From the IMG/VR virus record IMGVR_UViG_2917886563_000006: 18,870 nucleotides of DNA; one strand, given 5' to 3'. Source of the DNA: a virus. Taxonomy: Duplodnaviria > Heunggongvirae > Uroviricota > Caudoviricetes. The notes beneath the pieces were generated by a model. The model was not told the DNA's origin. It saw only the letters and a list, made by a program, of their open reading frames with translations, and ran no database searches. The position numbers and the translations under genes were made by a program. Shown here one piece after another: positions 10,821-15,197 of this stretch. How positions within the stretch are numbered: the first letter of the stretch is position 1; each line of letters begins with the position of its first letter.

Positions 10821-11189
10821 ATGTCAAACATCAAAAAATACATCATTGATTACGACTGGAAAGCGTCAATAGAAATTGAAATCGACCATGACGTAATGAC
10901 AGAGGAAAAACTTCACCAGATTAATAATTTCTGGTCAGACTCTGAATACCGACTCAATAAACACGGCGCTGTATTAAATGCTGTATTAATCATGCTGACA
11001 CAACATGCTCTGCTTATAGCAATTTCGAAAGACTTAAATGCATATGGTGTTGTTTGTGAGTTCGACTGGGATGATGGAAATGGTCAGGAAGGATGGCCTC
11101 CAATGGATGGTAGTGAAGGAATAAGAATTACCGATATCGATACATCAGGAATATTTGATTCAGATGATATGACTATCAAGGCCGCCTGA
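10821..11189 (+). CDS. ea10: Ea10-like protein (122 aa)
   Basis: Size and position in the pL operon upstream of cIII match lambda ea10 as recalled; AT-rich, acidic C-terminus. Identity is by position and size, not verified by alignment. Confidence 0.6.
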   Translation: MSNIKKYIIDYDWKASIEIEIDHDVMTEEKLHQINNFWSDSEYRLNKHGAVLNAVLIMLTQHALLIAISKDLNAYGVVCEFDWDDGNGQEGWPPMDGSEGIRITDIDTSGIFDSDDMTIKAA

Positions 11190-13487: not shown

Positions 13488-13894
13488 AACAAATGTCACT
13501 AATTGAGATTGATGGATTTCTGAAAGGTAAATGCATCCCACGAGATTTAAAGGTTAACGAAACAAACGCTGAATATCTGGTGCGTAAGTTCGGTGAACTT
13601 GAAGCTAAATGCGCGGCGCTGGCGGAGGAGAATGCTGGGCTGAAAAACGCAATGGCCGTAACTCTTGAGCATGTGTCGGTCACGGACGCAGGACAGGCCG
13701 GAGTAGCTGCGATGATTATCAATGATGCCCTGCACCACAGCGAAACCCCAGCCACCGACGCTTTCTTGGCTGAAGTCCGGGCGCAGGGATTGGAGATGTT
13801 TGCACAGAAATGTAACTCAAAATCCGAACAGTCGCTTGCATCTGATATACGCGACAACTGGAAAAACTCTAACTCGGTGGCCAGTTTTGGTTGA
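13484..13894 (+). CDS. Hypothetical protein (136 aa, predicted coiled-coil segment)
   Basis: Start at the ATG overlapping the upstream stop; heptad-like segment [30 protein letters not shown]. Confidence 0.55.
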
Positions 13895-13943
13895 CCACTT
13901 CAACGTTGACCTGGCCGCCAGCGGCGTTGCCTACAAAGAGCGG

Positions 13944-14054
13944 ATGAATATACCGGTAATTGCAGAACAGGTAGCCCGTGAGCAACCGGAGAACTTGCAC
14001 ACCTATTTCATGGAACGGCTACGATACTGGCCGGCGTTGAATTACTCCACATGA
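13944..14054 (+). CDS. Possible small ORF (36 aa; alternative TTG start at 13887 gives 56 aa)
   Basis: [36 protein letters not shown]; weak RBS; its stop lies 3 nt before the left direct repeat of the cassette. Confidence 0.25.
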
Positions 14055-14092
14055 TGCGCAAGGGGCAATATCAGCATCCTCAGGGTGATGGA

Positions 14093-14151
14093 TTGTCACC
14101 CACAGAACAATTTTATCTGCTGACTTTCCACCGTTAACGCGACACAACCTT
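14093..14151. repeat. Left terminal inverted repeat of the AT-rich cassette (perfect core 14118-14151)
   Basis: 14118-14151 TGCTGACTTTCCACCGTTAACGCGACACAACCTT is the exact reverse complement of 15105-15138; an outer part (TGTCACCC..GAACAATTTTATCTGCTG) pairs imperfectly with 15168-15197. Confidence 0.85.
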
Positions 14152-14317
14152 AATATGCCACAAAGGTTTTTGTTAACGAGCTGCATCTTTTTCTTTTCTG
14201 GGTGATGATTGTTTTATAATAAACAAATAACAACATTTATTCTTGTAAAAGTAATAATATCTCTTTGGTGATCGAATTTATTGATCGCATTTCAATTAAA
14301 CAAATAAGGAGTTTTTT

Positions 14318-15019
14318 ATGCCCAAAATTACCGGTGTTCTAGTGAGCCACCATGTGTTCGATATAAAAAAAGACATGGCTAATGGTTCATTCCCGAAAAC
14401 ATTATTTCCAGGCGCGACATTTCAGATGGTGGTTGACAATGATGTTGTCAATAATAATACGTTGGACTGGAGTGTTGTCACCAATGCGGGAGACAATTCG
14501 CTGACTGTAAATCAGGACGGCGTGGTGTCATTTTCAAATGATATTGATGAAAGTTGCATTGGTAAAACATTTGTTATTTTTGCGAAGGATAAAGCCACAG
14601 GGAAAAATGTGTCATCTTATTTAATTAAACCTTATCGCTTCTTTAAACCTCGTACCGCAACGTCGGACAGATTTTACGATGCATTGTTTTGGATTGAGGA
14701 TAAAAAAGGGACTGTCCCGGCACGACGCGATATCAATAATGTCCCTTTCGATGAACTGACGGGAGAAATGTTTCATGATGTAAAACGTGAAGTGAATTCC
14801 GGGCTTTTTCAGGAATGGGGATTTTTACTGTTTAGTGGGTGGACTAATCCTGTACGTGGTGATATTGGTAGTCTCGAATCAGAAATTTTCACTTTAGAAA
14901 ATGACAGTATATTTATATCGACAGTCAACTCCCTCCCATACTCCAGAGATCTCCATGATGATATGGACTCCCAGTCTGCACAGGCTGTAGCGTTTTACGG
15001 GGAATCTGTTGTTTCCTGA
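14318..15019 (+). CDS. Hypothetical protein (233 aa), cargo of the inverted-repeat-bounded AT-rich cassette
   Basis: Strong AAGGAG RBS 6 nt upstream of ATG; long AT-rich leader (14160-14317, sampled windows about 23-32% GC) and coding region about 40% GC versus a visibly higher-GC phage backbone; no signal peptide or transmembrane segment; no recognisable catalytic motif. Confidence 0.75.
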   Translation: MPKITGVLVSHHVFDIKKDMANGSFPKTLFPGATFQMVVDNDVVNNNTLDWSVVTNAGDNSLTVNQDGVVSFSNDIDESCIGKTFVIFAKDKATGKNVSSYLIKPYRFFKPRTATSDRFYDALFWIEDKKGTVPARRDINNVPFDELTGEMFHDVKREVNSGLFQEWGFLLFSGWTNPVRGDIGSLESEIFTLENDSIFISTVNSLPYSRDLHDDMDSQSAQAVAFYGESVVS

Positions 15020-15041
15020 TGTTTTAATGAGTTTTTAATAG

Positions 15042-15072
15042 TCTCCGTCTTTTTAATTTAAAGAGACGGAGA
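15042..15072. other. Stem-loop downstream of the 233-aa ORF (possible transcription stop/RNA stability element)
   Basis: 9-bp stem TCTCCGTCT / AGACGGAGA with 13-nt AT loop; no clean U-tract on either strand, so not a canonical intrinsic terminator. Confidence 0.4.
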
Positions 15073-15104
15073 TTATCGGCTCTGCAACGTGAAGCTCAGG
15101 AACA

Positions 15105-15197
15105 AAGGTTGTGTCGCGTTAACGGTGGAAAGTCAGCAAAAGTTGTATTGCTGGCTTTTCATGCAGCCAGCAGATAAATTGTTCCGCGGGTGACAGC
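15105..15197. repeat. Right terminal inverted repeat of the AT-rich cassette (perfect core 15105-15138; outer part 15168-15197; about 29-bp insertion between)
   Basis: Reverse complement of the left repeat; the inserted segment 15139-15167 itself contains a short hairpin (TGCTGGC...GCCAGCA). Confidence 0.85.

Follow-up and report, generated by a model that had tools for sequence, protein, structure and literature searches.

The tip shared by invasin and intimin is a textbook example of an extracellular receptor-binding module. In invasin, the domain pair D4-D5 is sufficient for integrin binding, and binding requires Asp811, Asp911 and the disulfide Cys907-Cys982 (review PMC3539135). Here we focus on a stretch of 18,870 nucleotides from a virus of the Caudoviricetes (IMG/VR record IMGVR_UViG_2917886563_000006; "the window" means this whole stretch) and on one of its genes, which encodes a protein of 233 amino acids with neither export signal nor disulfide. 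Very probably, this is a genuine gene for a free-standing copy of the two-domain receptor-binding tip fold of inverse-autotransporter adhesins, as modelled from profile and structure comparisons. Our explanation as a whole, to which we give a probability of about one half, is that this tip-fold protein acts as a cytoplasmic binder and is a candidate neutraliser of toxins. The gene and its parts are as follows.

14318..15019, + strand: leaderless stand-alone invasin D4-D5-like protein, an open reading frame (ORF) of 233 amino acids plus stop (ORF, profile, PDB and model evidence)
14318..14632, + strand: immunoglobulin (Ig)-like domain of the invasin D4 type, residues 1-105 (Pfam, phmmer and hmmsearch against 1cwv, model, ratio of nonsynonymous to synonymous substitution rates, dN/dS)
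14633..15016, + strand: C-type-lectin-like domain, residues 106-233, the counterpart of invasin D5 and intimin D3
14843..14977, + strand: hypervariable part of the lectin-like domain, residues 176-220 (identity, dN/dS, alignment A1)

Pfam assigns residues 23-101 to Invasin_D4 (PF21764; E=1.6e-8, 35.4 bits against a gathering cut-off of 27), and apart from a Cadherin_pro match below threshold (E 0.18) this is the only Pfam match. When the protein is compared with PDB sequences by phmmer, residues 2-74 pair with residues 302-366 of the invasin chain 1cwv_A, the start of invasin domain 4, and the ORF thus begins exactly at the invasin D3/D4 boundary. A family profile run with hmmsearch against 1cwv (E=8.5e-8) extends the match to residues 4-108 and weakly matches the D5 motif in the right order (GLYQEWG...GW against GTLWGEWG...W of invasin); in residues 106-233 this motif is conserved as GL(F/Y)QEWG...GW. 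The AlphaFold2 model, based on 15 family sequences, has a mean predicted local distance difference test score (pLDDT) of 74, with values of 87-94 at residues 31-100 (mostly >90 at 41-100) and 75-82 at residues 1-30. In a Foldseek comparison the model is closest to 1cwv (E=1.8e-12, template modelling (TM) score 0.66) and to intimin (E=1.6e-7, TM 0.56), all other matches having a TM score <0.3. Like the invasin/intimin adhesins, the protein also has a C-type-lectin-like domain packed on the last Ig domain (superdomain).

The first-pass annotation had placed a beta-rich, Ig-like region of the Big_2 type at about residues 30-100 and had left the C-terminal 130 residues unassigned. The Ig-like part is real, only that it spans residues 1-105 and belongs to Invasin_D4, and the C-terminal part is assignable as the lectin-like D5 domain. 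A Big_2 assignment was rejected because no Big_2 profile matches at E<=10 and phage Big_2 proteins match weakly by fold (TM ~0.24).

Phage capsids and tails often carry Ig-like domains, and the leaderless state is normal for virion proteins; together with weak Foldseek matches of the Ig-like domain to phage Big_2, neck-whisker and tail proteins, this raises the question of a virion decoration or accessory protein. Such a role is extremely improbable, since the viral matches span one domain only at a TM score of ~0.25, the gene belongs to the early-left region rather than to the late operon, homologues occur on a plasmid and in non-phage islets, and neither PHROGs nor tblastn against any sequenced phage gives a match.

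The ORF starts with an ATG 8 nt after an AAGGAG Shine-Dalgarno sequence, and an in-frame TAA at 14297-14299, 18 nt 5' of this ATG, means that no longer N-terminus can exist. Hydropathy reveals neither a signal peptide nor a membrane segment (maximal Kyte-Doolittle mean 0.79 over 15 residues and 0.67 over 19), and in the AlphaFold2 model the N-terminus is strand A of the Ig domain. The protein has a single cysteine (C80, within D4) and is acidic (32 D+E, 21 K+R). No enzymatic family was matched in Pfam, NCBIfam, PHROGs or PADLOC, the last three giving no match of any kind. On the ORF itself, the missing leader and membrane segment and the missing catalytic motif, the first-pass annotation was right, and a leaderless protein with such a fold is indeed unusual, as it had said. 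The profile search and structure comparison that it proposed have brought out a well-characterised family, for which the leaderless stand-alone prophage architecture is not described in the literature searched, and an Ig-like plus lectin-like fold with 1cwv as best match. The ORF is not disrupted in all relatives, a case that the annotation had named as counting against it, and the independent expression that it assumed is plausible. Overall, its interpretation is partly supported.

The 233-aa gene is intact in 11 divergent loci with an overall dN/dS of 0.1-0.5, and selection differs along the protein. D4 (residues 1-105) has a dN/dS of 0.13-0.23 and the first half of D5 (residues 106-175) one of 0.05-0.67, whereas the variable segment (residues 176-220) reaches ~0.5-1.9 in most pairs with dS not raised. 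Between major lineages, amino-acid identity is 0.30-0.51 at residues 176-220 and 0.63-0.85 in D4; beyond the variable segment, conservation returns in the last D5 strand (AQAVAxYG). A stable scaffold that bears a hypervariable lectin patch is what one would expect of a binding protein under changing ligand pressure. A word-indexed search returned 14 clusters of 156-233 residues (13 of them 218-233) with 40-94% identity, and every named source was Escherichia. The cluster formed around the window protein at 90% comprises 36 sequences, whose names include E. marmotae, unclassified Escherichia and a few entries labelled E. coli, nearly all called "hypothetical protein"; 16 contigs of Escherichia spp. 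encode the exact protein. A survey of GTDB species, each represented by a single genome, found members in Escherichia sp. E1V33, E. ruysiae and E. whittamii only. A search of 5,426 complete E. coli genomes with DNA of both main family clades returned no copy, and tblastn with the protein found no homologue in 50,697 phage and 72,556 plasmid records. Although E. coli prophages match the carrier prophages at 97-98% identity, the family is confined to cryptic-clade Escherichia. Escherichia sp. E1V33 holds four members (L017, L018, L019, L023), namely copies 100%, 71% and 44% identical and a 65% fragment, which suggests accumulated paralogues with different variable loops.

A non-functional relic, that is, a captured and decaying 3' fragment of an inverse-autotransporter gene, might explain why frameshifted A8 alleles (see below) and truncated or degenerate copies exist (P0004, P0016, P0017, L022, L023, P0074, P0076), why overall dN/dS is fairly high in several pairs (0.3-0.5) and why the neighbours hot' and humD' are themselves remnants. 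We consider this very unlikely. The start lies exactly at a domain boundary behind a strong Shine-Dalgarno sequence, D4 has a dN/dS of 0.13-0.23, and the stand-alone architecture persists in at least five genomic contexts and at identities as low as 40%. Even the nearest full-length adhesins are remote in sequence (E about 1e-25 or weaker), and the family is therefore no gene fragment of recent origin. The joint loss of both cysteines in three leaderless lineages likewise indicates adaptation. These comparisons show the 233-aa gene to be a selected gene and not a fragment or a chance ORF.

The cysteines bear on where the protein might fold. Among the homologues from an exhaustive profile search, all canonical ones retain both cysteines, in W-C-x-x-x-G and V-C contexts close to the C-terminus; in all leaderless members, the window family among them, these two D5 columns are I/V and F/S (alignment A5). 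The canonical short homologues P0047 and P0029 in this alignment have a hydrophobic N-terminal leader, as has the secreted 442-aa protein P0025, which also keeps both cysteines. Both are replaced in two other leaderless lineages as well, P0028 (Citrobacter amalonaticus) and P0024. Because canonical homologues keep the cysteines and three leaderless lineages have replaced both, the losses of leader and disulfide go hand in hand, which points to folding in a reducing compartment. Invasin Asp811 aligns to Lys17, with Asp15 and Asp19 close by (phmmer); D5 is alignable at the fold level only, which does not place Asp911. A beta-barrel translocator with its periplasmic domain and a Big_1-type stalk are absent from the 233 residues, and no barrel gene is adjacent.

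Since the 233-aa protein is leaderless and disulfide-free, it would most likely fold and act in the bacterial cytoplasm, and since it has no enzymatic part, it would work by binding, with its specificity in the hypervariable lectin loops. Judged from its sequence, the protein is probably such a cytoplasmic, non-enzymatic binder. The accessory genes that flank it in the leftward early (PL) region (abc2 and the remnants of hot and humD) encode binders of host proteins, which we count in favour of this reading.

A putative ligand is suggested by the neighbourhood of a sister clade. In this 70%-identical clade (L005, L008, L037, L038) a co-oriented gene for an ADP-ribosyltransferase (ART) of 422-424 amino acids lies 60 nt downstream (8760-10034 in L005, 1067-2335 in L008, 2200-3471 in L037). 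The ART core is Scabin-like (PF22596, E=7e-13; PDB matches to ScARP, Scabin, TreX and pierisin), has no leader and lies between beta-rich domains at the N- and C-terminus. In the comparison of L005 with L037, identity is 75% in the variable D5 segment and 94-96% in the remainder, and ART residues 191-250 have a dN/dS of ~0.6; between L005 and L008 the variable segment and ART residues 191-250 are both conserved. Such co-divergence would fit contact of the two regions as well as mosaic recombination. The D4-D5 protein may be an immunity- or antitoxin-like neutraliser of Scabin/pierisin-type ART toxins, and the window copy an orphan that would guard the lysogen, with expression perhaps switchable in the population by cassette inversion and A7/A8 slippage. 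Taken by itself, an immunity-like role towards ART toxins is a tentative and rather doubtful proposal, although it is the most concrete of the mechanisms considered.

Several observations weigh against our explanation. The binding partner of the D4-D5 protein is so far putative only, leaderless proteins can leave the cell by lysis or holin-type export, and pLDDT falls below 50 at residues 141-174. The co-divergence rests on one branch (L037), with dS higher in the ART gene, and all toxin-linked copies represent one integrase-associated islet lineage of cryptic-clade Escherichia. The window copy has no adjacent toxin gene, and no D4-D5 gene precedes an ART homologue of 43% identity, whose contig is, however, short and disrupted by an insertion sequence (IS). 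The extra beta-rich terminal domains of the ART resemble those of exported toxins. Immunity genes usually lie downstream of toxin genes, and here the gene lies upstream. PADLOC matches neither the ART nor the D4-D5 protein.

The same neighbourhood might also be read as that of an extracellular host-cell-binding factor of lysogenic conversion, released by lysis, holin-type or non-classical export, which would bind a eukaryotic receptor in the way that invasin D4-D5 does beta1 integrins, possibly via RGD, and in the sister clade would be the cell-binding partner of the ART. Pierisin/MTX-type ARTs are normally joined to lectin-type cell-binding domains, and a leaderless ART directly downstream would fit this arrangement. 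Prophage location makes release by lysis available, and a poly-A ON/OFF tract and an inversion, both described below, are typical of host-interaction loci. An RGD tripeptide is found at residues 180-182 (14855-14863), inside the hypervariable segment of the lectin-like domain, and D4-D5 is the module of invasin that suffices for integrin binding (PMC3539135). However, the RGD is limited to the clade of >=94% identity and is HGA or HGE at the same place in the sister clade (alignment A1), and the position of Asp811 is Lys17. The protein lacks a leader and both cysteines of the integrin-recognition disulfide, whereas short homologues with a leader keep them, and no lysis module lies close to the chromosomal and plasmid copies. 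We therefore regard an extracellular factor as unlikely.

The window corresponds to the early part of an HK97/HK022-like lambdoid prophage, which is integrated beside ybhC, at the attachment site of lambda. The order on the minus strand is Q, nin genes, DnaB-type helicase, replication initiator, cII and cro, and on the plus strand cI, N region, Rad52-type annealing protein, ssb, abc2, DUF2737 and Ea22-like gene; next come the 233-aa gene, orf104, orf123 (a 114-aa gene in the contig's own annotation), xis, int and ybhC. Locus L013 (assembly GCA_004745245.1, contig PDHX01000015.1) is identical to the window (100% over 14,553 bases). On either side, phage Huey and related E. coli prophages are 97-98% identical to the window; homology is lost near 13644 (with 41-nt matches to 13788) and is back at 15670-15717, which puts the 233-aa gene into the hypervariable accessory stretch that separates the recombination genes from xis-int. 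The cassette has a GC content of 0.33-0.42 compared with ~0.5 in its flanks and is inserted between otherwise adjacent genes, in line with the moron-type insertion proposed in the first-pass annotation. A separate accessory gene of the PL operon, upstream of cIII/kil, encodes a conserved DUF2528 protein (10821-11189; Pfam E=8.6e-46). Around the 233-aa gene, the following elements were found.

13895..14054, + strand: P1-type hot remnant (homologue of DNA polymerase III theta), cut at both ends (Pfam PF06440, E=5.6e-22)
14084..14151, no strand: left inverted-repeat arm; over its inner 34 nt (14118-14151) it is an exact complement of the right arm
14206..14317, + strand: 5' non-coding region that moves with the gene, with TATAA at 14215-14219, TAAnATC at 14255-14261 and then AAGGAG (alignment A2)
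14365..14371, + strand: poly-A tract A7 in codons 16-18; A8 in some relatives, giving a frameshift and a stop at codon 21
15038..15076, no strand: strong hairpin 19 nt after the stop codon (fold -29.8 kcal/mol, z=-4.9)
15105..15204, no strand: right inverted-repeat arm; inner 34 nt (15105-15138) perfect, with a 33-nt insertion relative to the left arm
15186..15318, + strand: P1-type humD (UmuD'-like) remnant, truncated, with no start codon, a 12-nt deletion and 83% identity

The hot remnant is 89% identical to a P1-like plasmid over 13902-14023 at the DNA level, and in the P1-like plasmid L009 hot and humD are adjacent and intact. At least six lambdoid prophages that differ in immunity region, recombination module, integrase and integration site encode the identical 233-aa protein, and in each of them the gene is part of one block, in the order hot remnant, gene, humD remnant, orf104 and orf114. 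More distant relatives are found elsewhere, namely in the nin region of a DLP12-like prophage, opposite to the nin genes (L006), at a chromosomal site between ybcH and an emrE-like gene (DLP12-type), on a Rep3 plasmid contig and in an islet beside a tyrosine recombinase. Together with its 5' sequence, the low-GC cassette has spread in cryptic-clade Escherichia over lambdoid prophages, prophage remnants, an integrase islet and a plasmid. The Citrobacter gene P0028 and the Logan contig gene P0024 form single-gene islets near IS elements or a secreted Ig protein, and neither context holds an informative functional partner. One further feature of the block is orf104 (15356-15670; MAKSAAERKADQRAKQ..., with a C-terminal CxxC...CxC cluster), which overlaps part of the humD-remnant reading frame and accompanies the cassette block in every one of the different prophages. 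It has no Pfam or PADLOC match, and orf123 has no PADLOC match.

This position would also suit an early phage accessory protein for host take-over or anti-defence, transcribed from PL with abc2 and the ea genes, binding and inhibiting a host protein, for example a defence or repair factor, and unconnected with ART toxins. The gene is co-oriented with the PL operon and lies between abc2/DUF2737/Ea22-like genes and xis-int, a region that is hypervariable in HK97/HK022-like phages. It is set in remnants of P1 hot and humD, both binders of host replication or SOS proteins, it has no consensus promoter of its own, and its fast-evolving loops would fit an arms race. Still, relatives lie outside phage operons, opposite to nin genes (L006), on a plasmid and in chromosomal islets, the cassette is inverted relative to PL in L026, the conserved 5' region moves with the gene, and none of the 50,697 sequenced phage genomes has a homologue. 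An early accessory function of this kind is hence improbable, and we return to the cytoplasmic binder as the preferred explanation.

From 14206 on, the 5' region of the gene is 79% identical to L005/L008, and ~110 nt are conserved in nine family members down to ~40% protein identity and in all the settings listed above, with invariant TATAA, AAATnA and TAAnATC (alignment A2). A consensus scan found no consensus sigma-70 promoter in 14206-14317. Judging from this conservation, the 233-aa gene plausibly has its own promoter, and the conserved region may be a regulator-dependent promoter or operator. A hairpin at 14268-14288 was rejected as a conserved RNA element: similar small hairpins occur in several relatives, with energies no better than shuffled sequences and no RNAalifold consensus. 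The hairpin at 15038-15076 has no clear U-tract and likely marks the transcript end or acts as a stabiliser. Rfam had no match in 13800-15500.

The cassette is bounded by inverted-repeat arms of ~68-100 nt, of which the inner 34 nt are perfect. At its outer end the right arm merges with the humD remnant; the left arm repeats the right one in inverted orientation. In the IMG/VR locus L026 (6120-7231) the segment corresponding to 14084-15195 is inverted between the same hot'/humD' flanks with the ORF intact, and metagenome contig L010, in which the right cassette end is joined to an inverted hot flank, is consistent with inversion; about 12 other loci carry the cassette in the window orientation. 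A 33-nt block containing a hairpin is present in the right arm only in the window, in the left arm only in L026 and in both arms of L014 and L016 (indicated for L028), which argues for exchanges at different positions. The arms of L014, L016 and L028 (and L030) align over 102 nt at 89-90% identity. The inversion thus has the appearance of repeated general recombination across the two arms rather than of a dedicated switch. Like site-specific switches of the Hin/Gin or Fim type, the cassette lies between inverted repeats and occurs in both orientations; unlike them, it has neither a dedicated invertase nor a fixed crossover site. The cassette encodes no recombinase, and the only recombinases in the window are a lambda-type Int and Xis. 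A Hin/Gin-type recombination site was set aside: a hix-like half-site at the left junction was seen by eye only, and no invertase is present. The inverted repeats were also considered as a general carrier of the family, in the manner of miniature inverted-repeat transposable elements, and this was rejected: none surround the relatives in L003, L005, L006, L007, L020 and L021, so that the repeats belong to the hot-humD insertion site alone. A metagenome scan with the 34-nt core gave no match.

The A8 allele of the poly-A tract occurs in L024, L025, L027 and L028. NCBI calls of 214 amino acids (start Met20) and 197 amino acids (start Met37) on otherwise identical sequences (P0074, P0076) have the late starts that an upstream frameshift would give. 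The A7/A8 difference could be phase variation, decay or homopolymer sequencing error.

A family that keeps the tip fold and has neither export signal nor disulfide suggests that this scaffold was recruited to an intracellular or lysis-released role, which is undescribed. If a ligand were found, it would define a new toxin-immunity or host-interaction pair, give a function to proteins that are almost all labelled hypothetical in databases and make available a small, two-domain, cysteine-poor binding scaffold. It is quite unlikely, though conceivable, that these proteins form a new class, in which the adhesin-tip fold would be reused as a cytoplasmic, disulfide-free recognition module with hypervariable loops that neutralises DNA-targeting Scabin/pierisin-type ART toxins or another conflict effector, spread by prophages as orphans among cryptic-clade Escherichia, with expression that varies in phase through inversion of the cassette and slippage in the poly-A tract. 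No paper in the literature searched names Invasin_D4/PF21764, and none joins inverse autotransporter, C-type lectin and prophage; the domains themselves are a well-known family, and it is their leaderless, disulfide-free, stand-alone prophage architecture that is not described in the searchable literature.

Among known systems, the variable proteins of diversity-generating retroelements (Mtd, TvpA) share with the window protein a C-type-lectin-like scaffold, variation in the C-terminal ligand-binding part and association with a phage-related element. Such an element was rejected here, as the segment 14843-14977 has no direct repeat that could be a template and the Pfam annotations of the window's own contig (L013) include no reverse transcriptase domain; the variation lies between lineages and is not made in situ. 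Tri1 for Tre1, ParS for ParT and DarG for DarT are cytoplasmic immunity or antitoxin proteins of ART toxins. Like these small, non-enzymatic or binding-type, toxin-adjacent proteins, which also occur as orphans on mobile elements, the sister-clade gene is co-oriented with a Scabin-like ART; unlike them, the family has no sequence or fold kinship to a known immunity family, its gene lies 5' of the toxin gene, and the window copy has no toxin partner. The Tir-binding module D2-D3 of intimin from enteropathogenic and enterohaemorrhagic E. coli (1f00/1f02) is 12% identical to the window protein, which lacks the export machinery, the disulfide, Tir and the context of the locus of enterocyte effacement. 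Identity to D4-D5 of Yersinia pseudotuberculosis invasin (1cwv) is ~20-22% overall. Invasin has a signal peptide, LysM, a beta-barrel translocator and the D1-D3 stalk, all missing from the window protein, and its Cys907-Cys982 disulfide and Asp811 contrast with the absent disulfide and the Lys at the Asp811 position; the window gene is moreover prophage-borne and its product probably cytoplasmic. The short secreted D4-D5 proteins differ in having an N-terminal leader and both cysteines, of which the window family has neither, and resemble it in their stand-alone or tandem D4-D5 architecture without a beta-barrel (P0047, 252 amino acids and lipoprotein-like; P0025, 442 amino acids with two units).

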